Notes: a model not told the origin generated them from the letters alone. 64,000 bases of DNA from an uncultured Gemmatimonadales bacterium (GCA_963779755.1 CAVZZO010000003.1:320001-384000); one strand, 5' to 3'; positions 46,015 through 63,508 are shown, counted from the first letter of the stretch. Numbers and translations are program-made.

Positions 46015-46036
46015 TGCTCCTCCGTTCAGGCCGTCC

Positions 46037-46170: not shown

Positions 46171-46171
46171 C

Positions 46172-46708
46172 ATGTACGCGGATCCTTTCGGGTTGAGAGG
46201 CTGTCCAGATGTTACGGGAACTGACCCGAATAGTCTAGACGATTGTCCGGAGCGATCCCCAGGTTACTATGCTGCTCGCATTGCCAAGGGTGAAGGTAGC
46301 AGGGTGTTGAATACGGCTTTGGGAGTACTCGCCACGATGGGTCAGGTGCTGGCGGAGCATACGACGGGGAGTGTCACAGTCGGTGAAGAAAGTATCGAGA
46401 CGGATGCCTATGGACTCACGGGTGGACTGGAAAATGGCAATACCAGAGTAGTGCAACGAGTCGGACTTCCCCAGATAGGAGGAAGCCTCGGATTCACTGT
46501 TGGGAATCCGGGTACTGGCGCCGTTGATTTTGGATGGAGCAAGCATCTCGGCATCACGATTCATACCGTGCCCAGTCCTGAAGGCGGCGGAATCTCTGGA
46601 ATCACCTTCAATCTCGGAATCGGCACACCGACCCTTATCGGCATCCAGGACCGGACAGTCGTGTCGCAACCGATTCCCAAATGCCTCGTCTCATGTGCAC
46701 ATGAGTAG
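46172..46708 (+). CDS. Orphan Rhs C-terminal toxin-like tip, type A
   Basis: Starts MYADPFGL (Rhs DPxGL boundary motif), then a unique 170 aa; visibly lower GC. Confidence 0.7.
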   Translation: MYADPFGLRGCPDVTGTDPNSLDDCPERSPGYYAARIAKGEGSRVLNTALGVLATMGQVLAEHTTGSVTVGEESIETDAYGLTGGLENGNTRVVQRVGLPQIGGSLGFTVGNPGTGAVDFGWSKHLGITIHTVPSPEGGGISGITFNLGIGTPTLIGIQDRTVVSQPIPKCLVSCAHE

Positions 46709-46937
46709 TCTACTTGGGTGGTTTCTGGTTGCCGGGGGAATTTTCTACATCGGCGCTGCTGCGTTCGACTGGATTGGGCGAGCAGCAAGTGTGCCCATCG
46801 TGAAGTGGCTTATCCTGCCGCTCCGCATAGGTGAAATACGCTGGGTTGGTGGTGGCAATCGACGATTTGCCGCTACCCTCGGCATCTTTCTTCTAGTCAT
46901 CGGCTTGCTACTCGTCTTGTTCGGTCCTGAACGATAG
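46701..46937 (+). CDS. Putative immunity protein, two TM segments
   Basis: Overlaps tip stop (ATGAGTAG); 78 aa hydrophobic; function inferred from position. Confidence 0.6.
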   Translation: MSSLLGWFLVAGGIFYIGAAAFDWIGRAASVPIVKWLILPLRIGEIRWVGGGNRRFAATLGIFLLVIGLLLVLFGPER

Positions 46938-46946
46938 GCTGCCGAA

Positions 46947-47435
46947 GGAGCCGGCCTCGTCTAGCCTGGGGCGCTCGCAGTGCCTCCGGGTTGTCGGGCC
47001 TGAGCTCCGAGGGGTCGGGTCTAGTTAGGAGCCTCGCGGGCTGCCGCGCGTGGCGGACCTCGGCCGGCGGAAAAGGAAAGTGGTGGGGGCCCCACGAGTT
47101 CAGCGGAACCCATCGGCTCCAGACCTGCCGCGAGCCGGCTCCCTCGTCGGGCGTCATGCGCCCACGGGAGCAGACGGGGTCACCCCACCGGCTCCAAGGT
47201 GCTACCCGGTCCTTCGATTGTCAAAGAGCGCCGCGTTCCGCGTGCCGGCGGGATCCTGGCACCACCCTCATAGGTCGTTGAGGCTCGGGGCCTCCCACAT
47301 CTTCATGGATGCTCTCCGATCCGCGGCCGGGCGGCCAGCAACACTCTGTGCGCGGAGCTCACCGAAGACGCCGGCGGCTCAAGGCAAATAGTGGGCGGCC
47401 CGGCCGCGCACGCGCGGCTCCCCACCGATCTCCGG
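46947..47435 (-). ncRNA. Putative bridge/seek RNA region with one donor and two target loops
   Basis: Non-coding, conserved in three copies, downstream of the recombinase; guide segments match the end junction and attC. Confidence 0.8.
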
Positions 47436-48704
47436 CTATTCGCTCACCACCGGCTCTGCCCGATGCCGCTGCGCCTCCCAGCGCTCCCGCTCGAACGGCT
47501 GGCCCGAGTGGAGTACGGCCAGGAGGAGCGGCACCAGCTTGCGCGCCACCGCACAGACCGCCTTGGTCCGGAGCCCGCCATTGCGGGCCAGCAGGGCCTG
47601 ATAGTACGCGCGGTAGAGCCCCCGGGGCTGGCACCAGCGGCCGCCCAGGAGGAACAGCTGGCGGCGGAGCAGCGGCCGGCCCCGTTTGGACTGTTTGCGC
47701 CGCCCCTGCACGCTGCCGCTGGAACGCTCGACCAGATTCATGCCTGCGAGTTTCAGCACCTGGCGGGGATGAGTGAAGCGCTCCGGAGTGCCCAGCTCGG
47801 CCACAATCGTAGCCGCACAGGTGGCACTCACCTCGGGAATGGTGGTCAGCGCCTTGGCGGCGGGACACTGCTCCACCAAGGCGGCGATCTGCTGGTTCAA
47901 CACCGCGAGCTGCTCCCGCAGGAGGTCCCAGCGGGCCAGGAGCTGCTGGATCTCCAACCGCCGCTCGGGAGCGGCGTCGGCCAGGGCGACACTGGTGCGG
48001 GCGGACTCGCGCAGGACGTGGAGCCGCTCCGGGCCCACGTGGCCCCGCGAGACGGACCGCGCCAGGCGCGTCACCGCGGCCGGGGCGGCCGCCAGGAAGT
48101 CCTGCGGCAGCGGCCAACGCGCCAGCAGGGCGCGCGGGGTGGGCTTGCGCACCTGCGAGAAGTGCGTCAGGAACTCGGGCCAGGCCAGGTCGAGCAGGCT
48201 CTGGAGACGGTTCTTGAACCGGGTTTCCTCGACGGTTAACCGGTGCCGGTGGGTGGTGAGCAGCCGCAGCTCGAGATACGGGGGCTGCAGCGCCGGATAT
48301 CCCACGAAGATCCCCAGGCTCACCAGCTTGCAGATCTCGGCGGCATCCTTCGCGTCCGTCTTGTTGGGGCTGTTATCCTCCAGTTCCTTGGCCCGCTTGG
48401 TGTGGGCCGGCAGGATATTGACCAGCGCATAGCCGCGCGCCCGCAGGCACTCGGCAAACGTGAAGCCGTGATGGCCGGCGAACTCCAGCCCCACCAGCAT
48501 CTGTCCGGGCCGGATGCCGGGAAACCAGGCCGTCAACTGCGCCGCGGCGGCCTCGAAGCCCGCGCGGCTCACCGGCACCCGGACCGGCTTCGTGCGGCGC
48601 CCATCGGGGCCCTGAGCAACCAGCACGTGGACCCGCTTCGCGGTATCCACGCCTACGTGAACGGGGAACGTGCGGGTATAGGCAGACTTTTCGTCGGGGG
48701 TCAT
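47436..48704 (-). CDS. IS110 family DEDD recombinase/transposase
   Basis: VGVDTAK, GLEFAG, KTDAKDA and C-terminal RSSGS; alternative start 48731. Confidence 0.95.
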   Translation of the reverse strand: MTPDEKSAYTRTFPVHVGVDTAKRVHVLVAQGPDGRRTKPVRVPVSRAGFEAAAAQLTAWFPGIRPGQMLVGLEFAGHHGFTFAECLRARGYALVNILPAHTKRAKELEDNSPNKTDAKDAAEICKLVSLGIFVGYPALQPPYLELRLLTTHRHRLTVEETRFKNRLQSLLDLAWPEFLTHFSQVRKPTPRALLARWPLPQDFLAAAPAAVTRLARSVSRGHVGPERLHVLRESARTSVALADAAPERRLEIQQLLARWDLLREQLAVLNQQIAALVEQCPAAKALTTIPEVSATCAATIVAELGTPERFTHPRQVLKLAGMNLVERSSGSVQGRRKQSKRGRPLLRRQLFLLGGRWCQPRGLYRAYYQALLARNGGLRTKAVCAVARKLVPLLLAVLHSGQPFERERWEAQRHRAEPVVSE

Positions 48705-48796
48705 GGCGCGGCTCCGGGTGGAGGGAATCACAGGAGTCGCGGAAGGAGCTACGGGCCGCGCAGCGGCGTCAAGCGGGTATAGATGTCTAGTTAAGC

Positions 48797-49277
48797 GACT
48801 ATGCTCGGGTTGCGTACTTCACGGGGAGGTCAAGACTCCGCTCTCTTCTGCGGGGAGGCTCGACTCGAGGCCGGGGTGCTCCTGCGGCGACTCCGGCGGG
48901 GCGAGAAGCTCGGGCTCCCGCACTCCCGACCGATACCGGGACTCGGCCGGCGGTGTCAAGAGTTGCGGATTCCCGACCAAGGACGCCACCTGGCGGATCA
49001 TCTATCGGCTCGATCGAGACGCAATCGTGATTGTGGAGGTCTTTGCGAAGAGCCAAGCGACTCCACAACAGGTCCTGGCCACGTGCGCGCGGCGGCCGAA
49101 CCACTAGGATGCGGTGAGCCGCGGGGAGGATTGATCATGAACAAACGGAAGCAGAAGCGGCTGGAAGCTGCCGGCTGGCGGGTGGGAACGACCACCGACT
49201 TCCTCGACCTCTCCCCTGAGGAGGCCGCCTTGGTGGAGCTGCGCCTGAAGCTGAGCGCGGCCCTCCGTCGAATCTGA
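48797..49277 (+). pseudogene. Decayed RelE/Gp49-like toxin plus truncated HTH antitoxin
   Basis: LHGEVKTP, ARLEAGVLLRRL..LGLPHSRP, WRIIYRLDRDAIVIVEVFAK in shifting frames; antitoxin MNKRKQKRLEAAGW stops before the HTH. Confidence 0.8.
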
Positions 49278-49287
49278 GTGGGTTGCT

Positions 49288-49427
49288 GGCTAACGAAGTG
49301 CGCGTGTGCTGCGGCGCGAACCTTCAGGTCTTCACAAACCTACGCGTCCTTATCCGTGCCACTAGGAGCCCGAGAGACTAGAGGAGACCGGCGCGACCGG
49401 CCCCGCAGAACGAAGCGCTAGTGAGGT
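49288..49427 (-). repeat. attC site with one core mismatch
   Basis: GGCTAAC...GCGCTAGTGAGGT. Confidence 0.85.
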
Positions 49428-49446
49428 GGCCCACTGCGGCCGCTCA

Positions 49447-49629
49447 CTACACTTCGTACGAGATCGGAAGGGCATGCAAGCACTCGGGGCAGAAATAGAT
49501 GCGGCGGGCGACGACAACCGAGCGGGCGCGCTTGTAGAAGATTCTGTCGAGCGAGGCATCACACGAGGGACATAGCGGGACCAGATCGCCCCTCTCCTCA
49601 TACGTGATTTTGGAATAGCGCTCCATCAT
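49447..49629 (-). CDS. Small zinc-ribbon protein
   Basis: CPSC...CPEC, 60 aa. Confidence 0.6.
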   Translation of the reverse strand: MMERYSKITYEERGDLVPLCPSCDASLDRIFYKRARSVVVARRIYFCPECLHALPISYEV

Positions 49630-49736
49630 GCCGCCCCCATCGTTAGAGCATGAAGTCAAGGAAGCCGAGGGATGGAACCGGGGCTCGAGCCCGACAAAGC
49701 AGGATGCCCTCCCTCCGGGGTGAGCCATTCCGCGCC

Positions 49737-49875
49737 ACCTAACGAAGTGCACGTGTGCTGCCGCGCGAGCCTTCAGGTCTTCACAAACCTACGCGTCCTT
49801 AGCCGCACCGCCAGGGCCGGAGCGTGCGCCCGCGGCCCTCGCGACCGGCCCGCCTGCTGCAAACACTGGTTAGAC
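49737..49875 (-). repeat. attC site
   Basis: ACCTAAC...CACTGGTTAGAC. Confidence 0.9.
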
Positions 49876-49889
49876 CGCAGCGTCCGCCA

Positions 49890-49918
49890 TTGACAGATAG
49901 ACGCCAGCGGCGTATATT
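49890..49918 (+). promoter_or_regulatory. Sigma70 promoter of TA cassette with palindromic operator in the spacer
   Basis: TTGACA-N17-TATATT; ACGCC-AGC-GGCGT. Confidence 0.8.
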
Positions 49919-49923
49919 GACGC

Positions 49924-50235
49924 ACGGAACTGATCGAAACAGCGGTCTTTACCAAACAAGCGACCGCCGAATGGTCGGCGGAGGCGTACCGGGCTTTCCA
50001 GCTCTACCTGGTGCTCAACCCGGAGGCCGGGGCCGTCATTCCCGGCGCCGGCGGTCTACGAAAGGTCCGCTGGCGACTGCCAGGCCGGGGCAAGCGCGGT
50101 GGTGCCCGGGTGATCTACTACTACAAGAATGCCGCGGGCCGGATCTACCTCTTGTTCCTGTATCCGAAGCACGTGCGGAGTGATCTGAGCCCCGGGGAGC
50201 TGCGGACGCTCCGGGCTCTCGTGGAGTCGGAGTGA
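49924..50235 (+). CDS. RelE/HigB-family toxin with ACG at the expected start
   Basis: ELIETAVF...NPEAGAVIPGAGGLRKVRW..GKRGGARVIYY. Confidence 0.8.
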   Translation, partial: TELIETAVFTKQATAEWSAEAYRAFQLYLVLNPEAGAVIPGAGGLRKVRWRLPGRGKRGGARVIYYYKNAAGRIYLLFLYPKHVRSDLSPGELRTLRALVESE

Positions 50236-50256
50236 TTCATTGACCGAGAGGATGAC

Positions 50257-50602
50257 CATGCGCAAGGACCTGTTCGACCAACTGCTGGCCAGCATCACGC
50301 AGATGAAGGAGATCGAGGCGGGCCGCCGGAAGCCCTCCCGGGTAACCCGCGGGGAGGACTTGCTGGCCAGCGAGCCCCCCGACGTCGCGGCCCTCCGTGC
50401 CCACTTTGGCTTGAGCCAGAGCAAGTTCGCGGCGCTACTTGGCATCAGCGTGGATACTCTGCAGAACTGGGAGCAGCATCGCCGCACGCCCGAGGGGCCT
50501 GCTCGGGTGCTTCTTCGTGTCGCCGCGACTCATCCGGAGGCGCTGCTTTCGATCTCCCAGAACCCCGCCCCCCGCCGTCGCGCCCGCAAAATAGCCGTCT
50601 AG
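50257..50602 (+). CDS. HTH (HigA-like) antitoxin
   Basis: GLSQSKFAALLGISVDTLQNWEQHRRTPEGPA; start approximate. Confidence 0.85.
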
Positions 50603-50637
50603 CCGCCTCGACCGACGCCACGGAGCGAGGTGCTGCG

Positions 50638-50779
50638 GTCTAACGAAGTGCGCGTGTGTTGCAGCGCGATCCCCACCTCCTTCACAAACCTACGTTTCCG
50701 CAGCGCGGCCGCTAGATCGACGGGAAATGCACCAACCGCCGGCAGCCCCCGGCCTGCAGAACGATGCTGCTTGTTAGGA
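50638..50779 (-). repeat. attC site
   Basis: GTCTAAC...GCTTGTTAGGA. Confidence 0.9.
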
Positions 50780-50806
50780 GGCGCCCGGCGTATTACATTG
50801 CATGAC

Positions 50807-51028
50807 ATGAAAAGCTCAGCCCTGACCATCCGCCTCGATCCCGAATTGGAGCGAGAGCTCGCCCGGGTGGCGAAACGCTCCGGCCGTTCCCGCAGCCAGG
50901 TCGTCCGCGACGCCTTACGCCGTCAACTGGCGATCGCTCAATTCCAGGATCTCCGCCGCCGGATCATGCCGCTCGCTGAGGCTGCCGGCTACCTGACCGA
51001 TGAGGATGTCTTTCGCGACGTCTCGTGA
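50807..51028 (+). CDS. CopG/ribbon-helix-helix antitoxin
   Basis: LTIRLDPEL...SRSQVVRDALRR. Confidence 0.85.
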   Translation: MKSSALTIRLDPELERELARVAKRSGRSRSQVVRDALRRQLAIAQFQDLRRRIMPLAEAAGYLTDEDVFRDVS

Positions 51029-51426
51029 GAGTCTTCTTCGATACCAATGTGCTGGTGAGCGCATTGGCTACTCGGGGGCTATGCGCTGACCTCTTCCAAG
51101 CTACTCTGGCGGACCATGATCTTCTCATTGGCGAAACGGTCATCGCCGAACTCACGGACGTTCTCAAACGTAAATTCCACGCCAGTGCCGCGAACCTCGC
51201 TGAAATCGAAGCGCTCCTGCGTCGGCATGGCGAAGTCATTCACAGTGAGCGGCTACTGCAGGTGAGGATCCGTGATCCCAAAGATCGAGCGATTCTCGCG
51301 GAAGCCGTTGCTGGTCGGGCAGATATCCTGGTCACAGGGGACCGTGACCTTCTCTCCATCACCGCCCGCGCGCCGATACCAATTCGCTCGCCCAGGGAGT
51401 TTTGGGAGGCCCTCCGGTCGAAATAG
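51025..51426 (+). CDS. PIN-domain toxin
   Basis: FFDTNVLVSA, RDPKD, LVTGDRDLL; GTGA overlap. Confidence 0.9.
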   Translation: MRVFFDTNVLVSALATRGLCADLFQATLADHDLLIGETVIAELTDVLKRKFHASAANLAEIEALLRRHGEVIHSERLLQVRIRDPKDRAILAEAVAGRADILVTGDRDLLSITARAPIPIRSPREFWEALRSK

Positions 51427-51443
51427 CTCCGATACTTAGCGCC

Positions 51444-51583
51444 TCCTAACGAACTGCGCGTGTGCTGCAGCGCGATCCCGACTTCCTTCACAAACCTACG
51501 TTTCCGCAGCGCCGCCGCTAGATGCCCGGGACATGCTCCGATGCCGGCAGCACCGGCCCGCCCATTGGAAACGCTAGTTAAAC
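51444..51583 (-). repeat. attC site
   Basis: TCCTAAC...GAAACGCTAGTTAAAC. Confidence 0.9.
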
Positions 51584-51967
51584 CGCCATCGGGCGGATGC
51601 TCGCCCGCACCCACTCCAAAAGCTGCTCCCGGCTCAGGCGGCCAGCCGCAACTCCCAGAATGACCTCTTCCGCCTTGTCCACCGAAGAAACCAGCTCCTG
51701 GCCATTGAGAACCAAGAAGACTTCCATAGCTGCGTGGCCGATCCGCTTGTTCCCGTCCACAAAGGGATGATTCTGGATCAGGCTAAACGCCAGGGCGGTC
51801 GCCTTGGCCGCGAGGTCCGGGTACAGGTCCTCTCCACCAAAGGTCATCCGTGGCTGGGCGAGCGCGGCCTCAAGCGCCCCGAGGTCCCGGATGCCAGAAG
51901 CGCCGCCGCTCTGATGGAGCAGACGGCGCTGAAGCTCAATCGCTTCGCCGAGTGTGAGGTACCGCAC
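51578..51967 (-). CDS. doc: Doc/Fic family toxin
   Basis: HPFVDGNKRIG; stop within attC core. Confidence 0.92.
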   Translation of the reverse strand: MRYLTLGEAIELQRRLLHQSGGASGIRDLGALEAALAQPRMTFGGEDLYPDLAAKATALAFSLIQNHPFVDGNKRIGHAAMEVFLVLNGQELVSSVDKAEEVILGVAAGRLSREQLLEWVRASIRPMAV

Positions 51968-51968
51968 C

Positions 51969-52163
51969 CTAGGCGAGCCGGCGATACAGTTCGCTGTTCT
52001 TGCTCAGAACACGACGCGCAGCTTCCTCGAAGTCCTTCTCGGGGTTCGCGATGAAGTCACGCACCGCCGCCGCGGCCAGATCCGCCGGGGGAACGCGCAA
52101 CTCCGCGGCGGCCTCCCGGAGGCGCCGCTCGGCATCGTCAGGCAGTTGGATCGAAAGGGTCAT
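51969..52163 (-). CDS. Antitoxin partner of Doc
   Basis: 64 aa ending KNSELYRRLA, directly upstream of doc. Confidence 0.82.
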   Translation of the reverse strand: MTLSIQLPDDAERRLREAAAELRVPPADLAAAAVRDFIANPEKDFEEAARRVLSKNSELYRRLA

Positions 52164-52216
52164 AGAGCCTCCGCTCCAATTCTAGCCCATCCGGACGCTC
52201 CGGGCCAGTTCTGGCG

Positions 52217-52357
52217 GTTTAACGAAGTGCGCGTGTGCTGCGGCGCGATGCCCAGCACCCTCACAAACCTACGTTTCCACCGCGCGACCGCGAGACCACT
52301 GGGAAATGCCCCAAGCGGCCGCAGCGCCGGCCCGCCTGCTGCAAACACTTGTTAGAG
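52217..52357 (-). repeat. attC site
   Basis: GTTTAAC...CACTTGTTAGAG. Confidence 0.9.
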
Positions 52358-52427
52358 GGCTTTGCCTTGCTCGTACAACGATATAGCGATAGATTACGCA
52401 GTCGTTGTACAGGCCTAGGAGGACAGA

Positions 52428-52634
52428 GTGTCTATCGTCAAAGTGTCGCCCAAGTACCAGGTGGTCATCCCGCAAAAGATCCGGGAAGCCCTCGGGATTG
52501 CTCCGGGCCAGAAGGTCCAGGCTATCCAGTACGGCGACCGGATCGAGTTCATCCCCGTGAAGCGGTTGCGGCAAATGCGTGGCTTTCTTGGGGGCATCGA
52601 CACTGAGGTGCCCCGCGAAGCGGACCGGGTGTGA
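52428..52634 (+). CDS. AbrB/MazE/SpoVT family antitoxin
   Basis: VSPKYQVVIPQKIREALGIAPG. Confidence 0.9.
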   Translation: MSIVKVSPKYQVVIPQKIREALGIAPGQKVQAIQYGDRIEFIPVKRLRQMRGFLGGIDTEVPREADRV

Positions 52635-53005
52635 ACGTCGTCGACTCGTCGGCCTGGCTCGAGTACTTCGCCGATGGCCCGAACGCAGCTTTCTTCGCTC
52701 CAGCCATTGAGCAGACGGCCAAGCTTCTCATCCCCACCGTGTGCCTCTATGAAGTCTTCAAACGGGTTCTCCTGCAGCGGGGGGAGGGCCCTGCCCTCCA
52801 AGCCATTGCCCTCATGCAGCAAGGTACCCTGGTGGACTTGGACGGCCCGATTGCCCTCACGGCGGCCCGCCTCAGCTCCGATCTCAAGCTGCCGATGGCT
52901 GACAGCATTGTTCTCGCAAGCGCTCGGCACCATGCAGCAACGGTCTGGACGCAGGATGTGGATTTTGAGAGCCTCCCCGACGGTCGATTTGCCCGGAAGA
53001 AGTAG
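52631..53005 (+). CDS. vapC: VapC PIN-domain toxin
   Basis: VVDSSAWLEYF, LPMADS, WTQDVDF. Confidence 0.9.
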   Translation: MNVVDSSAWLEYFADGPNAAFFAPAIEQTAKLLIPTVCLYEVFKRVLLQRGEGPALQAIALMQQGTLVDLDGPIALTAARLSSDLKLPMADSIVLASARHHAATVWTQDVDFESLPDGRFARKK

Positions 53006-53015
53006 GGGCAAAGCT

Positions 53016-53156
53016 GGCTAACGAAGTGCGTTTCAGCGGCGGCGCGATGCTCCGCGCCTCTCACAATCCTACGCTTCCACAGCGCGACCGCTAGATCCCC
53101 GGGGATGCGCCAGCGGCCTGCAGCCTCGGCGCGCCCGCTGGAAACGCTAGTTAGGC
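53016..53156 (-). repeat. attC site
   Basis: GGCTAAC...GAAACGCTAGTTAGGC. Confidence 0.9.
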
Positions 53157-53157
53157 C

Positions 53158-53669: not shown

Positions 53670-53718
53670 GCTTCAATCTCGGTCCGGGGCCCCAGGTAGG
53701 CAAGATCAGGGCAATGAG

Positions 53719-53859
53719 GCCTAACGAAGTGCGTGTAAGCGGCGGCGCGATGCCCCGCCCTCTCACAATCCTACGCTTCCACAGCGCGACCGCTAAATGC
53801 CCGGGAGATGCAACGACTCGCCGCAGCTCCGGCCCGCTCGCTGGAAACGCTAGTTAAGC
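53719..53859 (-). repeat. attC site
   Basis: GCCTAAC...GAAACGCTAGTTAAGC. Confidence 0.9.
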
Positions 53860-53860
53860 G

Positions 53861-54313: not shown

Positions 54314-54446
54314 GCTTAACGAAGTGCGCGTGTGCTGCGGCGCGAACCCGCGCTCCTTCACAAACCTACGTTTCCACAGCGCGACAGCTAGATCCCCGGG
54401 AGATGCGCCGCCAGCCCGCGCGACCGGCCCGTCAGAACGACGCGCT
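54314..54446 (-). repeat. attC site interrupted by IS110-family element (remainder at 57039-57048)
   Basis: Ends CAGAACGACGCGCT; AGTTAGGC resumes after the element. Confidence 0.9.
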
Positions 54447-54447
54447 C

Positions 54448-54903
54448 ATGTACGCGGATCCTTTCGGGCTGCTTGCCCAGGATTGTTGTATCGAAACGGG
54501 GGATTGGCGAAAGGATAACCTGCTTCACCCTGCTGTCTACAGCGGCAAGAGAGACAACCCGATGCTGGGAGTAGCTGTGGGTCTCCTGGCCGTTGCAGGT
54601 GGGGCCGAACTGGCTGCTCCCAGGTTATTTGCCGCGGCCACCGCTGCTCTTCCTAAGGTACCGTTTGAGAAATTCCAGGACTGGGGACGAAATGTTGTCC
54701 AATGGGGCCGTGGGGCAGCGGGGGCAATTCAGCGGGTTTCTGAAGTGACGGCCGAGCAGGCCTCTAAATTGGATCCACAGAAAGTGAAGATGGCTCGCGA
54801 CTTCTACCAGAAAGCTGTTGATGCTGGCCGAGGGGGAGCCGCCGCACCCGAACGAGTAAAGCTGATGGAACGCATTTTAGACCTGCAGCAGAGAACCCAT
54901 TAG
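54448..54903 (+). CDS. Orphan Rhs C-terminal toxin-like tip, type B
   Basis: MYADPFGL start, hydrophobic linker, C-domain WGRGAAGAIQR..FYQ..RVKLMERI reminiscent of DUF4951 (from memory, unverified). Confidence 0.72.
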   Translation: MYADPFGLLAQDCCIETGDWRKDNLLHPAVYSGKRDNPMLGVAVGLLAVAGGAELAAPRLFAAATAALPKVPFEKFQDWGRNVVQWGRGAAGAIQRVSEVTAEQASKLDPQKVKMARDFYQKAVDAGRGGAAAPERVKLMERILDLQQRTH

Positions 54904-54949
54904 TGGCTCGGTCCGGTCTATTCGAGCATTGCAACACGGAGGAAGAGCC

Positions 54950-55198
54950 ATGCTGGAAGCAGCGGTCACACTTCGGCTTACGAATAGATGCGAAACTGCG
55001 CGGAAGCTCGTGATTGAGCCATGGACCACCGAGTTTCGACTGCAACCTGGGCACACTTACGACTTGGTGATATCAGGGGACCTTGGCCTCCCCTTAGAGG
55101 TTGAGTTCGAGGACGACGAACTAACCGTATACACTTTCGATTCCGCCAATGCCTCCTTCAAGATTTCCGAAGGCGGGGCTGAACTTAAACCACTGTAG
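54950..55198 (+). CDS. Putative immunity protein
   Basis: GGAGG RBS, 82 aa acidic protein with IEPW motif, directly after the tip. Confidence 0.65.
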   Translation: MLEAAVTLRLTNRCETARKLVIEPWTTEFRLQPGHTYDLVISGDLGLPLEVEFEDDELTVYTFDSANASFKISEGGAELKPL

Positions 55199-55687
55199 GA
55201 GCCCGGCCCTGTCTAGCCTGGGGCGCTCGGGGCGCCTCCGGGTTGTCGGGCCTGAACTCCGAGGGGTCGGGTCTAGTTAGGAGCCTCGCGGGCTGCCGCG
55301 CGTGGCGGACCTCGGCCGGCGGAAAAGGAAAGTGGTGGGGGCCCCACGAGTTCAGCGGAACCCATCGGCTCCAGACCTGCCGCGAGCCGGCTCCCTCGTC
55401 GGGCGTCATGCGCCCACGGGAGCAGACGGGGTCACCCCACCGGCTCCAAGGTGCTACCCGGTCCTTCGATTGTCAAAGAGCGCCGCGTTCCGCGTGCCGG
55501 CGGGATCCTGGCACCACCCTCATAGGTCGTTGAGGCTCGGGGCCTCCCACATCTTCATGGATGCTCTCCGATCCGCGGCCGGGCGGCCAGCCATACTCTG
55601 TGCGCGGAACTCACCGAAGACGCCGGCGGCTCAAGGCAAATAGAGGGCGGCCCGGCCGCGCACGCGCGGCTCCCCCCCGGTCTCCGA
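55198..55687 (-). ncRNA. Putative bridge/seek RNA region, copy 2
   Basis: Near-identical to 46947-47435; guide segments unchanged. Confidence 0.8.
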
Positions 55688-56956
55688 CTATTCGATCACC
55701 ACCGGCTCTGCGTGATGCCGCTGGGTCTCCCAGCGCTCCCGGTCGAACGGCTGGCCCGACTGGAGCACGGCCAGGAGGAGCGGCACCAGCTTGCGGGCCA
55801 CCGCGCAGACCGCCTTGGTCCGGAGCCCCCCGTTACGGGCGAGCAGGGCCTGATAGTACGCGCGGTAGAGCCCCCGGGGCTGGCACCAGCGGCCGCCCAG
55901 GAGGAACAGCTGGCGGCGGAGCAGCGGCCGGCCCCGTTTGGACTGTTTGCGCCGCCCCTGCACGCTGCCGCTGGAACGCTCGACCAGATTCATGCCTGCG
56001 AGTTTCAGCACCTGGCGGGGATGAGTGAAGCGCTCCGGAGTGCCCAGCTCGGCCACAATCGTAGCCGCACAGGTGGCACTCACCTCGGGAATGGTGGTCA
56101 GCGCCTTGGCGGCGGGACACTGCTCCACCAAGGCGGCGATCTGCTGGTTCAACACCGCGAGCTGCTCCCGCAGGAGGTCCCAGCGGGCCAGGAGCTGCTG
56201 GATCTCCAACCGCCGCTCGGGAGCGGCGTCGGCCAGGGCGACACTGGTGCGGGCGGACTCGCGCAGGACGTGGAGCCGCTCCGGGCCCACGTGGCCCCGC
56301 GAGACGGACCGCGCCAGGCGCGTCACCGCGGCCGGGGCGGCCGCCAGGAAGTCCTGCGGCAGCGGCCAACGCGCCAGCAGGGCGCGCGGGGTGGGCTTGC
56401 GCACCTGCGAGAAGTGCGTCAGGAACTCGGGCCAGGCCAGGTCGAGCAGGCTCTGGAGACGGTTCTTGAACCGGGTTTCCTCGACGGTTAACCGGTGCCG
56501 GTGGGTGGTGAGCAGCCGCAGCTCGAGATACGGGGGCTGCAGCGCCGGATACCCCACGAAGATCCCCAGGCTCACCAGCTTGCAGATCTCGGCGGCATCC
56601 TTCGCGTCCGTCTTGTTGGGGCTGTTATCCTCCAGTTCCTTGGCCCGCTTGGTGTGGGCCGGCAGGATATTGACCAGCGCATAGCCGCGCGCCCGCAGGC
56701 ACTCGGCAAACGTGAAGCCGTGATGGCCGGCGAACTCCAGCCCCACCAGCATCTGTCCGGGCCGGACGCCGGGAAACCAGGCCGTCAACTGCGCCGCGGC
56801 GGCCTCGAAGCCTGCGCGGCTCACCGGCACTCGGACCGGCTTCGTCCGCCGGCCATCGGGGCCCTGGGCGACCAGGACGTGAACGCGCTTGGCGGTGTCC
56901 ACACCCACGTGGACGGGAAACCAGCGGGCGTAGGCGGACTTCTCATCGGGGGTCAT
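55688..56956 (-). CDS. IS110 family DEDD recombinase/transposase
   Basis: Near-identical to copy 1; intact; alternative start 56983. Confidence 0.95.
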   Translation of the reverse strand: MTPDEKSAYARWFPVHVGVDTAKRVHVLVAQGPDGRRTKPVRVPVSRAGFEAAAAQLTAWFPGVRPGQMLVGLEFAGHHGFTFAECLRARGYALVNILPAHTKRAKELEDNSPNKTDAKDAAEICKLVSLGIFVGYPALQPPYLELRLLTTHRHRLTVEETRFKNRLQSLLDLAWPEFLTHFSQVRKPTPRALLARWPLPQDFLAAAPAAVTRLARSVSRGHVGPERLHVLRESARTSVALADAAPERRLEIQQLLARWDLLREQLAVLNQQIAALVEQCPAAKALTTIPEVSATCAATIVAELGTPERFTHPRQVLKLAGMNLVERSSGSVQGRRKQSKRGRPLLRRQLFLLGGRWCQPRGLYRAYYQALLARNGGLRTKAVCAVARKLVPLLLAVLQSGQPFDRERWETQRHHAEPVVIE

Positions 56957-57065
56957 AGCGCGGCTCCGGGTGGAAGGAATCACAGGAGTCGCGGAAGGAG
57001 CTACGGGCCGCGCCGCGGCGTCAAGCGGGTATAGATGTCTAGTTAGGCTTCACTGCGCATTCAAC

Positions 57066-57446
57066 TTATCCGAAGCGTTCTCTGAAGCCTTCCTGTGCCT
57101 CGCTGATAATAGGCAAGAGCTCGTGCTCGGCGACTTGAACAGTTTCGATACCAAGCCGCTCCGCCTCACTGGCTACGGACTGAGCTACCAGATCCTTCGG
57201 AAGAAGCAGGGTCTTTGGCCAGCGCCTCTTATGATCATGCGCCTCCTTCAGCAGACGCTTTGCCTCGAGCTGACTGGGCTCCGCCTGATCTACTGGAACG
57301 GGCGCGGAGCTGAGAATGAAGCAGCTCGCCGCGTCCATCAGTGCAAGAAAATGGAAATCCCCGTCCTGCTCTGTGCGGATGGGCTCCTTGTTCAGTTTGA
57401 ACCAGATCCAGGCTTGGTTGATTTCGAACTGATTTGGGTGGAGCAC
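57066..57446 (-). CDS. Hypothetical cassette protein
   Basis: GTG start after AGAGG; fills the cassette. Confidence 0.7.
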   Translation of the reverse strand: MLHPNQFEINQAWIWFKLNKEPIRTEQDGDFHFLALMDAASCFILSSAPVPVDQAEPSQLEAKRLLKEAHDHKRRWPKTLLLPKDLVAQSVASEAERLGIETVQVAEHELLPIISEAQEGFRERFG

Positions 57447-57464
57447 TGGTGAACCTCTGGTGAA

Positions 57465-57605
57465 GCCTAACGAAGTGCGTTTCAGCGGCGGCGCGATGCC
57501 CCGCTCCTCCACAATCCTACGCTTCCACAGCGCGACCGCTAGATCCGGGGGCAATGCACCAACAGGCAGCAGCACCGGCCCGCCCGCTGGAAACGCTAGT
57601 TAGGG
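57465..57605 (-). repeat. attC site
   Basis: GCCTAAC...GAAACGCTAGTTAGGG. Confidence 0.9.
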
Positions 57606-58100
57606 TCGCAGGCGCTCGACACCCAAGTGAACCGGTTTCCACGAGTCGAAACCGGTACCGATCAGCGCGCCGAGAGCACCCCACGTCAGGCCAGTACCGA
57701 TTATGGCTCCGGCTTCCCCCTGACCTGCAGGTCGCTGCTCCGCTGTGCCGACCACATAGACCAAGGCCAGGCCGGCGCCCACGAGCGCACCGATCACCGC
57801 TCCTCGCCGTGCTTGGTTGCCTTGGCGTACTTCGACGAGGCTCAACCCGGCCGCGGGCCGGCGAATGGTGTCCGCGGCCCCCCTCGCAGTGCACGCGGGA
57901 CTCGGGTAGCTGCAATACACGATAGTATCCGTCTGGGCACCGAGTGGCGACAGCAAACGCCCACGCGCTGGAGGAGCGAGGGACCACGTCAGACGCACCA
58001 CACTCCCAACGGGGAGAACGGCTAGGGAGTCCCTCTTCTGGGCACCGGCAATCGCTGGCCACAGAAGGAGCAGGGCGACTGCAAAGAAGGCATGCCGCAT
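57600..58100 (-). CDS. Hypothetical exported protein with C-terminal glycine-rich hydrophobic hairpin
   Basis: Signal peptide; RGAVIGALVGAG...GALGALIG; stop in attC core. Confidence 0.65.
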   Translation of the reverse strand: MRHAFFAVALLLLWPAIAGAQKRDSLAVLPVGSVVRLTWSLAPPARGRLLSPLGAQTDTIVYCSYPSPACTARGAADTIRRPAAGLSLVEVRQGNQARRGAVIGALVGAGLALVYVVGTAEQRPAGQGEAGAIIGTGLTWGALGALIGTGFDSWKPVHLGVERLRP

Positions 58101-58178
58101 GTGCCGGGCCCGTGGAAGGAGACCTTCTGCCACTACTTGTTCTCCGTCCTCCAGCCGTGACCTAGTCGACTTGCTGCG

Positions 58179-58318
58179 CCCTAACGAAGTGCGTTTCAGC
58201 GGCGGCGCGATGCCCCGCTCCCTCACAATCCTACGCTTCCACAGCGCGGCCGCTAGATGTTTGGAGTTGCGCCAGGCGGCAGCAGCCCCGGCCCGTCCGC
58301 TGGAAACGCTAGTTACGC
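58179..58318 (-). repeat. attC site
   Basis: CCCTAAC...GAAACGCTAGTTACGC. Confidence 0.9.
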
Positions 58319-58324
58319 AGCAGC

Positions 58325-58537
58325 CTAAAGGTCGTTCGGAGTGAGCCCGGTATGCTTCGAGATTCGGGCGAGCATTCTGGGACCGATCTCCTCTTGGTCA
58401 TGGAAGGCAAAGACGAAGTCAGGCCAGCCTGCCCGACTCAACGTCCGGTGGGAGCCGGATTCGCGCTTGACAGACCAGCCGATCCGGAGAAGAGCCGCCA
58501 AGACCCGTCGGGCCTTGGCAGCTCCCCAGCTACTCAT
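58325..58537 (-). CDS. hicA: HicA family toxin
   Basis: LLRIGWSVKRESGSH, FAFHDQEEIG. Confidence 0.88.
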   Translation of the reverse strand: MSSWGAAKARRVLAALLRIGWSVKRESGSHRTLSRAGWPDFVFAFHDQEEIGPRMLARISKHTGLTPNDL

Positions 58538-58740
58538 GCGGCCTGAAAGCTAAGGTTCAGGAGTTCGGGGACAGCCTCGCCATGCTCCAAGCGTTCGGCC
58601 AAGGAACGCAAGGCCAGGGCTTGGACCCTCGCCACGGCGTCAGGCCGCGTGACCCCGTAGGCCATCACGCCCGGGAGGTCCTGGACCTCCGCAAGCCAAC
58701 GGCCATCAGTCTCCTGTTCGACCTCGATACGGAGAATCAC
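58534..58740 (-). CDS. hicB: HicB family antitoxin
   Basis: EQETDGRWLAEVQDLPGVMAYG. Confidence 0.88.
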   Translation of the reverse strand: MILRIEVEQETDGRWLAEVQDLPGVMAYGVTRPDAVARVQALALRSLAERLEHGEAVPELLNLSFQAA

Positions 58741-58797
58741 GGCGTTCCTCCAAGGCTAGTTTGCTTGGCCCAAATCTAACTGGGAAGCGGCCTTGCT

Positions 58798-58937
58798 GCG
58801 TAACGAAGTGCGCGTGTGCTGCAGCGCGATCCCGACTTCCTTCACAAACCTACGTTTCCGCAGCGCGGCCGCTAGATCCCTCGGAGATGCCCCACCCGGC
58901 GGCAGCACCGGCCTGCAGAACGACGCGCTTGTTACAC
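58798..58937 (-). repeat. attC site
   Basis: GCGTAAC...GACGCGCTTGTTACAC. Confidence 0.9.
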
Positions 58938-58943
58938 AGCACC

Positions 58944-59213
58944 CTAGAGGTCTTGGATCAGCCGCTCGTACTCGTCGTGGGAGCCAATCCAAAACCAAAG
59001 AATGAGCTCGCCCTCGCGCACGCCAAGAGCGCGATACCCCAGACTGACCCGGGCGGAGTAGATCGGCTGTGTGGCGTGGACTGGCTTGAAATGCAGGCTT
59101 GGGTGCTGCGGGTCGTCACGGAATTGCTGATAGGCCTTGCGGGCTCGCTCCTGCACATGGACCGGTAAGGCCCCGAACGCCTTCCGGAACCGGGCCGTGG
59201 TCCTGGAGATCAA
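58944..59213 (-). CDS. RelE/ParE-fold toxin
   Basis: TTG start overlapping the upstream stop; HPSLHFK, YSARVSLGYRALG, WFWIGSHDEY. Confidence 0.85.
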   Translation of the reverse strand: MISRTTARFRKAFGALPVHVQERARKAYQQFRDDPQHPSLHFKPVHATQPIYSARVSLGYRALGVREGELILWFWIGSHDEYERLIQDL

Positions 59214-59428
59214 AGCCGGTCGGGATCTAGAGCCTCTGATCGGCCGGCCCGATGCTCCTCCAGGGCCTCCTGGGCCAGCCTCTGCAGCTGATCTCCAGAG
59301 GCACCCAAGAGGGCTTCCCACCGCGCATCGGCGGCCAATTCTTCCAGGATCGCGGCGGCAAGCTCGTCCTGGTCCTTGGGGGGGAGCCGGGAGGCCACTT
59401 CAAAGGCCTTCTTCAGGTTACGGGTCAT
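59210..59428 (-). CDS. Putative antitoxin
   Basis: 72 aa acidic protein coupled to the toxin. Confidence 0.8.
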   Translation of the reverse strand: MTRNLKKAFEVASRLPPKDQDELAAAILEELAADARWEALLGASGDQLQRLAQEALEEHRAGRSEALDPDRL

Positions 59429-59478
59429 GCTGGATGATATGGCAAAGGAGAGCGGCGCGCTAGCCGCGCCTCAGTGCT

Positions 59479-59618
59479 GTGTAACGAAGTGCGCGTGTGC
59501 TGCAGCGCGGTCCTTCAGGATTTCACAAACCTACGCTTCCACAGCCGCGCCGCCAGGAGGCCGGAGTGTGGGCCAGGGGCCTGCGCGACTGGCCTGCAGA
59601 ACGACGCGCTTGTTATAT
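59479..59618 (-). repeat. attC site
   Basis: GTGTAAC...GACGCGCTTGTTATAT. Confidence 0.9.
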
Positions 59619-59818
59619 GGCGAAACGCTCTCGGCCTCAACCGGAACCGGGGCCAAATGCCTGGGCCGCCTCACGGAGACCGGGGCGCCGGCACCTGTTG
59701 GAACTTCTGCCGCGCTTTGATGCATGGCGGCCCGAACAGCGCCCTCAAGGAACTTGGGCGGCCACCACCAGATGCTGTTGTACATCAAAAGAGAACGAGC
59801 AGTCCAGCCCGTTCGACC

Positions 59819-59958
59819 ATATAACGAAGTGCGCGTGTGCTGCAGCGCGATCCCTCAGGTTCTCACAAACCTACGCTTCCACAGCCGCGGCGCCAGGAGG
59901 CCCGGGCGAGGGCCGGCGGTCCGCGCGACCGGCCTGCAGAACGACGCGCTTGTTAGGT
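59819..59958 (-). repeat. attC site
   Basis: ATATAAC...GACGCGCTTGTTAGGT. Confidence 0.9.
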
Positions 59959-60357
59959 TGCTGCAGGATGCCCGCTGCGCCGGCGCCATTCAAAGACGAC
60001 GACCAGGGCGAGAACGAGCAGAATGGGAGCCGTCAGTACCCCTGGGGTATAGCCTCCTTGCTGCCAGGACCACAACGGATGACCGACGCCGTTGATGACT
60101 TCGATGGTCACCCAGAACGTGACAATCGCTCCCGTCCCACGCCAGCCGCGCCTCACGGGCCAGATAAAGCACCAAACCCCAAAAGCAACGAGGGCGACAT
60201 TGAGGACCGCAAACCCGACCTGCCGGTTGCTCGACACTAAGCCGGTGAGAATGCGGGCTGGCGGGAAGGAGTCGTAGAGCTTGCCCAGATATTCCTCGAC
60301 CGAGTGCGCTGCCTGGCCAAGTACCAGTGCTCCAAACGCCAAGTGAAAGCGAGACAT
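59953..60357 (-). CDS. HXXEE domain membrane protein
   Basis: AHSVEE, INGVGH, YTPGVLTA; stop in attC core. Confidence 0.85.
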   Translation of the reverse strand: MSRFHLAFGALVLGQAAHSVEEYLGKLYDSFPPARILTGLVSSNRQVGFAVLNVALVAFGVWCFIWPVRRGWRGTGAIVTFWVTIEVINGVGHPLWSWQQGGYTPGVLTAPILLVLALVVVFEWRRRSGHPAAT

Positions 60358-60368
60358 GCTTGGCAGCA

Positions 60369-60508
60369 ACCTAACGAAGTGCGCGTGTGCTGCAGCGCGG
60401 TCCTTCAGGTTCTCACAAACCTACGTTTCCTTAGCCGCGCCGCCAGGAGGCTCGGCCGATGCCAGGCAGCCAGCGCGACCGGCCTGCAGAACGACGCGCT
60501 TGTTAGCA
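60369..60508 (-). repeat. attC site
   Basis: ACCTAAC...GACGCGCTTGTTAGCA. Confidence 0.9.
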
Positions 60509-60790
60509 ACCAGCTGCGCACGGCGGCCTAGGCTAGCCCGGAGCCCGCGCCCCGAAGCCCTGGCCGCCCGCTGGGAACGGTGCGGCGCGGGGACGGCCCG
60601 GTGGCGTGGAACTCTCACGGCACCTGCCCTGCCCCGACCGCGCCGGGCTCCAGAAGCCCTGGGCGGCGGATTCGTTTGAGCCTTTCTGCACGGAGGCGGG
60701 GCCGCCCGCAAGGAGTTGCTCTCGGGTTCCTGAGCTCCGCGGCCCTCATGGGGCCCACCAAAGAGACCCGCTGCGGTGCCTCGCTTGTGT

Positions 60791-60921
60791 TGCTAACGAA
60801 GTGCGCGTGTGCTGCAGCGCGATCCCTCAGGATTTCACAAACTTACGCTTCCACAGCCGCGCCGCCAGGAGGCCGGAGCATGGGCCCGCGGCCCGCGCGA
60901 CGGCCTGCAGAACGACGCGCT
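60791..60921 (-). repeat. attC site interrupted by IS110-family element (remainder at 63505-63514)
   Basis: Ends CAGAACGACGCGCT; TGTTAGAC resumes after the element. Confidence 0.9.
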
Positions 60922-60922
60922 C

Positions 60923-61377
60923 ATGTACGCGGATCCTTTCGGGCTGCCTGCCCAGGATTGTTGTATCGAAACGGGGGATTGGCGAAAGGATAACCTGCTT
61001 CACCCTGCTGTCTACAGCGGCAAGAGAGACAACCCGATGCTGGGAGTAGCTGTGGGTCTCCTGGCCGTTGCAGGTGGGGCCGAACTGGCTGCTCCCAGGT
61101 TATTTGCCGCGGCCACCGCTGCTCTTCCTAAGGTACCGTTTGAGAAATTCCAGGACTGGGGACGAAATGTTGTCCAATGGGGCCGTGGGGCAGCGGGGGC
61201 AATTCAGCGGGTTTCTGAAGTGACGGCGAGCAGGCCTCTAAATTGGATCCACAGAAAGTGAAGATGGCTCGCGACTTCTACCAGAAAGCTGTTGATGCTG
61301 GCCGAGGGGGAGCCGCCGCACCCGAACGAGTAAAGCTGATGGAACGCATTTTAGACCTGCAGCAGAGAACCCATTAG
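60923..61377 (+). pseudogene. Rhs tip type B with 1-bp deletion near 61227 (possible sequencing error)
   Basis: GTGACGGCGAGC versus GTGACGGCCGAGC in copy 2. Confidence 0.65.
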
Positions 61378-61423
61378 TGGCTCGGTCCGGTCTATTCGAG
61401 CATTGCAACACGGAGGAAGAGCC

Positions 61424-61672
61424 ATGCTGGAAGCAGCGGTCACACTTCGGCTTACGAATAGATGCGAAACTGCGCGGAAGCTCGTGATTGAGCCATGGAC
61501 CACCGAGTTTCGACTGCAACCTGGGCACACTTACGACTTGGTGATATCAGGGGACCTTGGCCTCCCCTTAGAGGTTGAGTTCGAGGACGACGAACTAACC
61601 GTATACACTTTCGATTCCGCCAATGCCTCCTTCAAGATTTCCGAAGGCGGGGCTGAACTTAAACCACTGTAG
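61424..61672 (+). CDS. Putative immunity protein, identical to copy 2
   Basis: Same translation as 54950-55198. Confidence 0.65.
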   Translation: MLEAAVTLRLTNRCETARKLVIEPWTTEFRLQPGHTYDLVISGDLGLPLEVEFEDDELTVYTFDSANASFKISEGGAELKPL

Positions 61673-62156
61673 GAGCCCGGCCCTGTCTAGCCGGGGCGCT
61701 CGGGGCGCCTCCGGGTTGTCGGGCCTGAACTCCGAGGGGTTGGGTCTAGTTAGGAGCCTCGCGGGCTGCCGCGCGTGGCGGACCTCGGCCGGCGGAAAAG
61801 GAAAGTGGTGGGGGCCCCACGAGTTCAGCGGAACCCATCGGCTCCAGACCTGCCGCGAGCCGGCTCCCTCGTCGGGCGTATGCGCCCACGGGAGCAGACG
61901 GGGTCACCCCACCGGCTCCAAGGTGCTACCGGTCCTTCGATTGTCAAAGAGCGCCGCGTTCCGCGTGCCGGCGGGATCCTGGCACCACCCTCATAGGTCG
62001 TTGAGGCTCGGGGCCTCCCACATCTTCATGGATGCTCTCCGATCGCGGCCGGGCGGCCAGCAACACTCTGTGCGCGGAGCTCACCGAAGACGCCGGCGGC
62101 TCAAGGCAAATAGAGGGCGGCCTGGCCGCGCACGCGCGGCTCCCACCGATCTCCGG
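61672..62156 (-). ncRNA. Putative bridge/seek RNA region, copy 3
   Basis: Near-identical to the other copies with a few single-base deletions. Confidence 0.75.
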
Positions 62157-63422
62157 CTATTCGCTCACCACCGGCTCTGCGTGATGCCGCTGCGCCTCCC
62201 AGCGCTCCCGCTCGAACGGCTGGCCCGAGTGGAGTACGGCCAGGAGGAGCGGCACCAGCTTGCGCGCCACCGCACAGACCGCCTTGGTCCGGAGCCCGCC
62301 ATTGCGGGCCAGCAGGGCCTGATAGTACGCGCGGTAGAGCCCCCGGGGCTGGCACCAGCGGCCGCCCAGGAGGAACAGCTGGCGGCGGAGCAGCGGCAGG
62401 CCCCGTTTGGACTGTTTGCGCCGCCCCTGCACGCTGCCGCTGGAACGCTCGACCAGATTCATGCCTGCGAGTTTCAGCACCTGGCGGGGATGAGTGAAGC
62501 GCTCCGGAGTGCCCAGCTCGGCCACAATCGTAGCCGCACAGGTGGCACTCACCTCGGGAATGGTGGTCAGCGCCTTGGCGGCGGGACACTGCTCCACCAA
62601 GGCGGCGATCTGCTGGTTCAACACCGCGAGCTGCTCCCGCAGGAGGTCCCAGCGGGCCAGGAGCTGCTGGATCTCCAACCGCCGCTCGGGAGCGGCGTCG
62701 GCCAGGGCGACACTGGTGCGGGCGGACTCGCGCAGGACGTGGAGCCGCTCCGGGCCCACGTGGCCCCGCGAGACGGACCGCGCCAGGCGCGTCACCGCGG
62801 CCGGGGCGGCTGCCAGGAAGTCCTGCGGCAGCGGCCAACGCGCCAGCAGGGCGCGCGGGGTGGGCTTGCGCACCTGCGAGAAGTGCGTCAGGAACTCGGG
62901 CCAGGCCAGGTCGAGCAGGCTCTGGAGACGGTTCTTGAACCGGGTTTCCTCGACGGTTAACCGGTGCGGTGGGTGGTGAGCAGCCGCAGCTCGAGATACG
63001 GGGGCTGCAGCGCCGGATATCCCACGAAGATCCCCAGGCTCACCAGCTTGCAGATCTCGGCGGCATCCTTCGCGTTCGTCTTGTTGGGGCTGTTATCCTC
63101 CAGTTCCTTGGCCCGCTTGGTGTGGGCCGGCAGGATATTGACCAGCGCATAGCCGCGCGCCGCAGGCACTCGGCAAACGTGAAGCCGTGATGGCCGGCGA
63201 ACTCCAGCCCCACCAGCATCTGTCCGGGCCGGACGCCGGGAAACCAGGCCGTCAACTGCGCCGCGGCGGCCTCGAAGCCTGCGCGGCTCACCGGCACTCG
63301 GACCGGCTTCGTCGCCGGCCATCGGGGCCCTGGGCGACCAGGACGTGAACGCGCTTGGCGGTGTCCACACCCACGTGGACGGGAAACCAGCGGGCGTAGG
63401 CGGACTTCTCATCGGGGGTCAT
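62157..63422 (-). pseudogene. IS110 recombinase with several 1-bp deletions (possible sequencing errors)
   Basis: Single C missing near 62967, 63160 and 63313 relative to copy 2. Confidence 0.8.
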
Positions 63423-63508
63423 AGCGCGGCTCCGGGTGGAAGGAATCACAGGAGTCGCGGAAGGAGCTACGGGCCGCGCCGCGGCGTCAAGCGGGTATAG
63501 ATGTCTTG

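Follow-up and report, generated by a model that had tools for sequence, protein, structure and literature searches.

Seek (bridge) RNA elements of the IS1111 group, a branch of the IS110 family of insertion sequences that includes the attC-targeting ISKpn4 and ISPst6, encode a DEDD recombinase of about 340 amino acids (aa) with a long non-coding region downstream (PMC11187229, PMC11208160). IS621 and ISCro4 have donor and target loops with covarying guides and a 2-bp core, and in the TIGR-Tas report (PMC12045711) an IS110 bridge RNA is presented as a single two-stem unit. Polymorphic Rhs toxins can replace their C-terminal tips at a PxxxxDPxGL boundary without loss of the old immunity gene. 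The homologous-recombination model for this process proposes that a circular intermediate inserts the new tip while the old one is shunted downstream without being lost (Jackson 2009, PMC2935791; Poole 2011, PMC3150448), and it predicted tip-carrying circles with no dedicated enzyme (PMC2935791). In this study, we analysed a 64,000-nucleotide stretch from an uncultured Gemmatimonadales bacterium (GCA_963779755.1, CAVZZO010000003.1:320001-384000; the window, meaning the whole stretch), which contains three IS110-family units, each with an Rhs tip and a probable immunity gene inside its own ends. It is very probable that these units belong to a family in which an IS1111-like bridge recombinase carries out RNA-guided displacement of Rhs C termini, with attC as a second site.

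The units share with IS1111 elements the DEDD recombinase, the long downstream non-coding region, the top-strand guide placed first and insertion at one end of attC, and possibly also a subterminal inverted repeat (degenerate here). Unlike IS1111 elements, they have an enzyme of about 430 aa, natural cargo inside a protein-coding end, tandem target loops, and a primary target that lies within a host gene, to which the tip becomes fused in frame. As in IS621 and ISCro4, the guides of the donor and target loops covary and the core is 2 bp long (CT in the window copies), whereas, in place of a single two-stem unit, the elements that we call type A have zero to three detectable target loops. The boundary at PxxxxDPxGL and the retention of the old tip are common to the Rhs displacement model, in contrast to which each tip here travels with its own predicted RNA-guided recombinase and has a fixed crossover. 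Natural cargo also occurs in large IS110 elements, where it is described as opportunistic and mostly plasmid and resistance DNA, and one such locus has several predicted donor loops (10.64898/2026.08.14.744561). The main text of that report contains no mention of Rhs, toxin, attC or integron; toxins are likewise unmentioned in the main text of 10.64898/2026.10.21.760802, and the supplements of both, which lie outside our scope, could list these elements. The literature search, with most subscription journals and ISfinder outside its scope, returned no paper linking IS110 or IS1111 to Rhs tip exchange, nothing on DUF4951 and nothing on IS110 together with polymorphic toxins and RNA guidance. 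In the literature searched, we found no described system like this proposed one, in which an Rhs tip exchanger guided by RNA combines arrayed guides with a second site for parking. Tn7 and CRISPR-associated transposons (CAST) have two target pathways, and tRNA-restoring islands restore the 3' end of the interrupted gene, with unrelated enzymes; here, RNA loops appear to set both pathways for one protein, and what restores the 3' end is a variable toxin domain.

The three units, each 2.6 kb, lie exactly where the initial annotation had placed them, with GACGCG-CT before and CT-(A/T)GTTA after each unit and both termini common to all three (Table 1). It had also proposed that removing a unit and one CT restores a normal attC, and this was borne out: the rebuilt attC, ~130 bp in length, forms a long hairpin whose TAAC and GTTA ends are paired. 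A fourth full copy was found at C1:684203-686785, and the same attC position is used by all four full copies (4/4). A true end between the immunity gene and the guide region was rejected, as four different attC flanks abut the tip directly. The two cargo genes, described earlier as oppositely oriented, are indeed opposite to the recombinase, and antisense to the cassettes of the array as well, but relative to each other they are co-oriented, both on the + strand. The G+C content of the cargo is 55-56%, against 70% in the element body. Unit 3 differs from unit 2 by nine single-base indels, which may be long-read errors.

The enzyme belongs to the IS110 family and very probably works in the manner of an IS1111 bridge recombinase. 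It contains PF01548 and PF02371, scores 195 bits against NF033542 (cut-off 140) and conserves the catalytic D, E, D, D and S-G columns, while its similarity to IS621 and ISCro4 (PDB 8wt6, 9t56) is distant (E 1e-20). The layout is of IS1111 type, with a guide region of ~490 nt downstream of the recombinase and an end of ~80 nt upstream; in both target loops, read in recombinase orientation, the top-strand guide lies ahead of the bottom-strand guide. This guide order and position agree with the definition of the IS1111 group in PMC11187229 and PMC11208160. The short end and the YxDP codons of the tip may form a subterminal inverted repeat, in degenerate form, with a mean of 5.7 of 11 matches over 44 end pairs against at most 3.7 off the diagonal (window, 6/11). 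The related elements fall into types A and B, whose recombinases are about 40% identical; type B formed one clade (41 rows, 100%) in a quick, unfinished tree that includes several wrong-frame rows. The attC-only targeting of ISKpn4 and ISPst6 does not extend to this family, in which most homologs lie in rhs genes and the enzyme length differs. Viral contigs contained no relatives, plasmids contained only relatives below 60% identity (best ~33%), and the two of these inspected, from Bacillota (~33% identity), had no DPxG motif within 3 kb.

Relatives were collected from 301 genomes at order level and 401 at phylum level (of which 12 and 9 had matches, counting the genome of the window), 72 metagenome loci and 20 genome loci. 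Once double calls had been removed, the element calls numbered 133, of which 79 were type A and 54 type B; these are not independent, and some were fetched twice. The initial annotation had suggested testing homologs for DPxGL at the distal end, and a relaxed tip motif (xxDPFGL) was found 0.6-2.3 kb past the recombinase in 66 of 69 evaluable homologs, compared with 0/69 on the opposite strand and 5/2000 random genome windows. The strict motif [YWFH]xDP[FY]G was present in 61 of the 69 homologs with enough flank. Among 79 tips, 14 were in frame with Rhs cores of 511-1,529 aa and 22 with short or cut cores; 24 stood directly behind another element's end, 3 lay at contig ends, and 16 were classed as non-rhs sites, although about three of these look like rhs by eye. 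Four long fusions were tested, and all four matched Rhs_assc_core and YD repeats. Immediately past the far end, 57 of 102 elements had a displaced tip whose N-P or D-P codons were replaced by the element end, as in the junction NRCL-A-YTDPFGL. From the fusion and displaced-tip junctions together, the crossover core lies at bases 1 and 2 of the codon for Val in (N/D)PVxYxDPFGL. The boundaries and the tip fusions in relatives support the proposal of the initial annotation that the recombination end is itself Rhs coding sequence and that the cargo lies inside the ends.

The genome of the window has its own rhs locus at C3:1.485-1.55 Mb, with 13 Rhs-core matches, of which 12 exceed the cut-off and four lie in frames of 1,394-1,665 aa; one full-length Rhs protein ends in a Colicin E5-like domain. 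A type B element of the same layout is present there, with the tip junction GGNPVA-YTDPFGL and a far end that runs into the displaced tip V-A-FRDPFGL. In the same region (G000:C3:1485000-1550000; L047, L048), about eight orphan tips keep a core fragment of 30-40 aa, the classical homologous-recombination pattern, and the two routes of tip exchange may coexist in this locus. It also contains duplicated genes that we take to be GxxExxY-like.

The ~490-nt guide region holds repeated units of ~60 nt, each a stem, an internal loop and a hairpin. Loop units were called with a profile hidden Markov model, which under-calls loops; 115 shuffled sequences gave at most 9.3 bits. Stems in 15 units were 92.6% paired, and 6 of 9 pairs showed double changes, a result reached in 0 of 500 shuffles. 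The region had no Rfam match, and its fold as a whole was not significant (z -1.4). In the window elements, the donor loop reads AGATGT / CT-CAT, and the two target loops read ACAACCCG-G / CT-AGCC, corresponding to codons N-N-P-V-A, and ACGCG-C / CT-AGTTAG, corresponding to attC. The left donor guide of type A equals the left donor end in 28/31 cases, following its AGATGT, AGAGGT and AGGTGT variants, and the right donor guide equals the first three bases of the tip in 22/23 (CAC 13, CAT 7, CAA 2). For targets, loop and donor have the same core dinucleotide in 36 of 38 (mean of 23.0 after shuffling), the right-target match is 11/38 against 3.9 after shuffling, and the left-target score over 22 elements is 121 against 99.9. 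An rhs-type loop was found in 44 of 57 elements, 27 of which also have a different loop, and two or three target loops were detectable in 33 of 61 full type A regions. A guide-carrying RNA is predicted from this covariation of guides with flanks and within stems. Two further features of the region were seen: three tandem target loops at L065/L090, two of them for rhs codon variants, and a TTGTCAAAGAGC-like motif between donor and target loops, conserved in the non-coding regions of both types.

These guide matches bear on the possibility that the units are ordinary IS1111-attC elements that gained tip and immunity DNA passively by sloppy end choice, with the rhs arrays formed by homologous recombination as in the 2009 model. 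Members of IS1111 that target attC are known (PMC11187229), and cargo capture via flexible end recognition has been described (10.64898/2026.08.14.744561). Under passive capture, however, the donor guide would not be expected to track the first codon of the tip, nor would so many elements be expected to hold an rhs-type loop; moreover, displaced tips start precisely at the core and keep no core fragment, in contrast to those of the homologous-recombination model. We consider passive capture very improbable.

For RNA-guided tip displacement, we propose the following course. Each unit would act as one cartridge, ordered as tip, immunity gene, guide region, antisense recombinase and short end. 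The donor loop would recognise ...TAGATGT and the first codons of the tip and join the ends at the 2-bp core into a circle, as in the IS110 mechanism; by this analogy we infer both circle formation and RNA-guided strand exchange. The rhs target loop would recognise the (N/D)-P-V-x codons just before YxDPFGL, and with the core at bases 1 and 2 of that Val codon, insertion would join the reading frame of the cargo tip to that of the Rhs core. Behind the element, the displaced old tip and its immunity gene would stay intact, and such end products were observed in many genomes. A second target loop would recognise another site, here attC, whose use was observed; a tip parked in attC, without an Rhs core, is probably stored silent. 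The target loops may be separate RNAs, as reported for another IS110 element (10.1101/2025.10.25.684509). In genome G137, the left junction keeps the GT of the target and the right junction has the CT of the donor, which fits an exchange just after the core. The four copies in the genome of the window are mosaics of one another, and this mosaicism suggests how one body comes to carry different tips; reshuffling would probably proceed by recombination between near-identical copies.

For Rhs tip replacement, the family offers a candidate enzyme, a precisely located crossover and a circle that can be tested. If the proposal is true, an IS110 enzyme would naturally swap domains in a coding gene, in frame and without scars, and a single recombinase would use several arrayed target guides for multiplexed, dual-pathway targeting; both bear on the engineering of bridge recombinases. 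The wider reading also seems likely to us, namely that an RNA-guided recombinase family reloads polymorphic toxins across the phylum, with one-toxin cartridges that end in the reading frame of the toxin itself, a small array of target loops that evolution has reprogrammed to track rhs codon variants and to include safe sites such as attC, so that one enzyme has several pathways, and types A and B displacing each other's warheads in turn on one Rhs carrier.

A pattern search located attC-type loops in 9 of 65 type A regions. Their carriers include both attC-inserted elements (the window units, L034) and rhs-inserted elements (L038/L039, and L066 with a 1,433-aa core). The rhs loop was also present in at least 7 of these 9 regions, plus L098 and L079, and the same pair of rhs and attC guides occurs in rhs-inserted and attC-inserted copies. 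G137 has insertions of both kinds, with its attC copy 3.4 kb from an integron integrase, and its attC guide and site differ from those of the window in a concerted way (CCATGCGC / CT-GGTTAG). The near-identical recombinases of L065, which lies in rhs, and L068, which lies in another site, have two guides in common. Exact matches to the attC guide pattern number 17, all within the two arrays of the genome. Other second sites recur as well, AAAAACGCC-CT-AAC for type A and GT-TTCT for type B (L068, L082, L091, L093, L136; L117-L119, L133, L140).

In 35 of 37 cases, the target of an element is not the same as its own tip junction. For the most part, type A elements carry CA(C/T)G, and the tips that they displace are AGCC or CAAC; AGCC is carried by one group of type B, which displaces tips with CACG or CATG. 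Neighbours alternate between A and B in 16/20. The codon after Val may serve as an address, such that each element would avoid its own junction and types A and B would target each other's, giving alternating arrays. At L065, L102, L121, L144, L145 and L076, a single rhs core is followed by two or three alternating elements in a chain; L038 and L039 (G137, C3 and C1) show the same rhs-element array on two contigs, likely an assembly duplication.

The multiple copies, the guides for second sites and the targeting of A and B by each other resemble competition between elements, and all four type A copies of this genome lie in attC, away from rhs. Both observations suit a purely selfish element, aimed at a conserved rhs motif, whose replacement 3' end only repairs the interrupted gene in the manner of tRNA-targeting integrases, with toxin diversification as a by-product. 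A constant 3' end would do for repair, yet the cargo is hypervariable, with 107 distinct tips in 77 clusters, has a downstream gene and includes known toxin domains. Since the chemistry would be the same as in tip displacement and only the evolutionary purpose differs, both can hold; a purely selfish purpose seems to us conceivable, though on the doubtful side.

Matches to Pfam were obtained for 16 of 103 tips, including Tox-REase-9, AHH, Ntox10, Tlde1, TseH, lysozyme, M23 and NlpC/P60, and several of these families are of the polymorphic-toxin or cell-wall-lytic kind; the scan covered 103 of the 104 non-window tips, one frameshifted duplicate being left out. The cargo of the window units is an Rhs tip with a probable immunity gene. 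Tip 2 matched DUF4951 in the Pfam scan, and a HMMER library search returned 101 homologs with the domain mostly C-terminal; 22 of the 101 have a PxxxxDPxG-like motif, and RHS repeats were found in 6 of 16 long homologs chosen from them. At L037, a 44%-identical homolog of tip 2 lies on an Rhs gene and is followed by a homolog of immunity gene 2 and then by a type A element. The predicted model of tip 2 (predicted local distance difference test score, pLDDT, 85) had a single match, 2MMB (Foldseek E 0.007; Z 11.0, root-mean-square deviation 2.9, 83 aligned), which gives no clue to activity because this Acinetobacter protein is uncharacterised. Tip 1 resembles other Rhs tips only in its N-terminal ~55 aa. 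A word-index search returned no longer homologs of tips 1 and 2 (the HMMER library search was made for tip 2 only), the homolog search with immunity gene 2 returned only itself, and the Atlas feature search gave hypothetical proteins or weak leads only. A stand-alone homolog of immunity gene 2 (35-38%), without a tip, lies in the same cassette array at C3:392756-393025 (L168:457-726, - strand). Inside tip 2, at 54554-54567, ACAACCCG-AT matches the left half of the unit's own rhs guide before an in-frame Met, probably by chance. VgrG was not found in the genome of the window with one model (completeness 97%).

The first tip gene had been taken to begin with Met at base 2 of the element. Among 79 homologous tips, 9 have Met at this position and most have Thr, Ala, Asn or Ser, and an ATG selected as a start was rejected. 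The same ATG, present in all four copies of this genome, would suit attC cargo that functions in its present state, as a stand-alone toxin-antitoxin (addiction) module or an immunity store. The array presumably holds many toxin-antitoxin-like cassettes, and immunity gene 2 has its orphan homolog there. Orphan Rhs tips can function as toxin-antitoxin modules of type II (PMC7043789). However, Met also occurs at base 2 in rhs-inserted copies while another attC-inserted copy has Thr, the tip is antisense to the cassette array, and all four copies have kept the rhs guide intact. The stretch 46000-48900 yielded no sigma-70 promoter, by eye there was no clear junction promoter either, and no obvious ribosome-binding site precedes the ATG. 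We regard a function of the attC cargo as such a module or store as unlikely.

Several results weigh against RNA-guided tip displacement as proposed here. The elements are related and some loci are duplicates, and p-values are therefore overstated; the 15 loops of the stem test were picked by pattern. Three of the 69 homologs lack the tip motif (L075_B, L120, L153). In 27 of 38 elements, no decoded loop exactly matched right-target positions 2-4, and a cruder exact-match test recovered 16/44 targets and 14/44 donors. The rhs guide of the window has at least 3 mismatches in 13 positions to the rhs motifs of this genome, while 263 sites elsewhere have at most 2, and the rhs locus of this genome contains no type A copy. 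Neither circle joints nor empty sites were seen in three low-coverage, patchy contig sets that do not span the element. As to toxicity, tip 1 has no Pfam match and no functional assignment, DUF4951 is a domain without known activity, and 87 of the 103 scanned tips have no Pfam family. The element ends mark these 87 among a large pool of candidate antibacterial toxin-immunity pairs.

Table 1. Features of the three units, by position in the window
Feature	Position	Strand	Remarks
attC left part, ending GACGCG-CT (left target and core)	46040..46170		the array's cassettes are read on the - strand
Unit 1, whole mobile element, type A	46171..48786		
Rhs tip 1, 178 aa, MYADPFGL...	46172..46708	+	first bases form the right-donor end and a possible degenerate subterminal repeat
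Putative immunity gene 1, 78 aa, hydrophobic	46701..46937	+	overlaps the tip stop codon; role suggested by position
Predicted rhs-motif target-binding loop	46947..47008	-	left guide ACAACCCGG (46986-46994) matches N-N-P-V codons; right guide (46961-46966) pairs CT-AGCC
Predicted attC target-binding loop	47007..47063	-	left guide ACGCGC (47046-47051); right guide (47021-47028) pairs CT-AGTTAG
Intervening structured region	47064..47254	-	conserved motif at 47218-47233
Predicted donor-binding loop	47255..47315	-	left guide AGAUGU (47296-47302); right guide (47267-47273) pairs CT-CAT
IS110-family DEDD recombinase, type A, 422 aa from ATG	47436..48704	-	D-E-D-D and SSG columns conserved
Short end upstream of recombinase	48705..48788		...TAGATGT, then second CT core; attC resumes AGTTA
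Unit 2, whole element	54447..57038		in attC starting at 54317
Rhs tip 2, 151 aa	54448..54903	+	C-terminal DUF4951 helical domain
Putative immunity gene 2, 82 aa	54950..55198	+	homolog follows homologous tip in L037
Unit 2 guide region	55199..55567	-	guides of rhs loop 55213, 55238; attC loop 55273, 55298; donor loop 55519, 55548
Unit 2 recombinase	55688..56956	-	98% identical to that of unit 1
Unit 3, cargo same as unit 2	60922..63504		in attC starting at 60794; 9 indels frameshift tip and recombinase

The attC repeats in window 40000-64000 are ~130 bp long and fall into two end classes, and all four element copies lie in the GACGCG class. Twenty attC-like starts were counted in the window; genome-wide, 46 uninterrupted repeats of the unit-bearing type were found, of which 19 end in CGACGCGCTTGTTA. 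Between 49100 and 58700, the cassettes include many pairs that we take, from their sequence features, to be toxin-antitoxin-like (RelE/HigB, PIN, Doc and HicAB-like). Two integron integrases scored above cut-off, one flanking each array: that at C3:405150, 21 kb past the window, shares its strand with the cassettes, and that at C1:690828 adjoins the fourth full copy. A right-end remnant of 135 bp, cut within the 5' end of the recombinase, lies near the second integrase in an attC context at C1:673507-673641.

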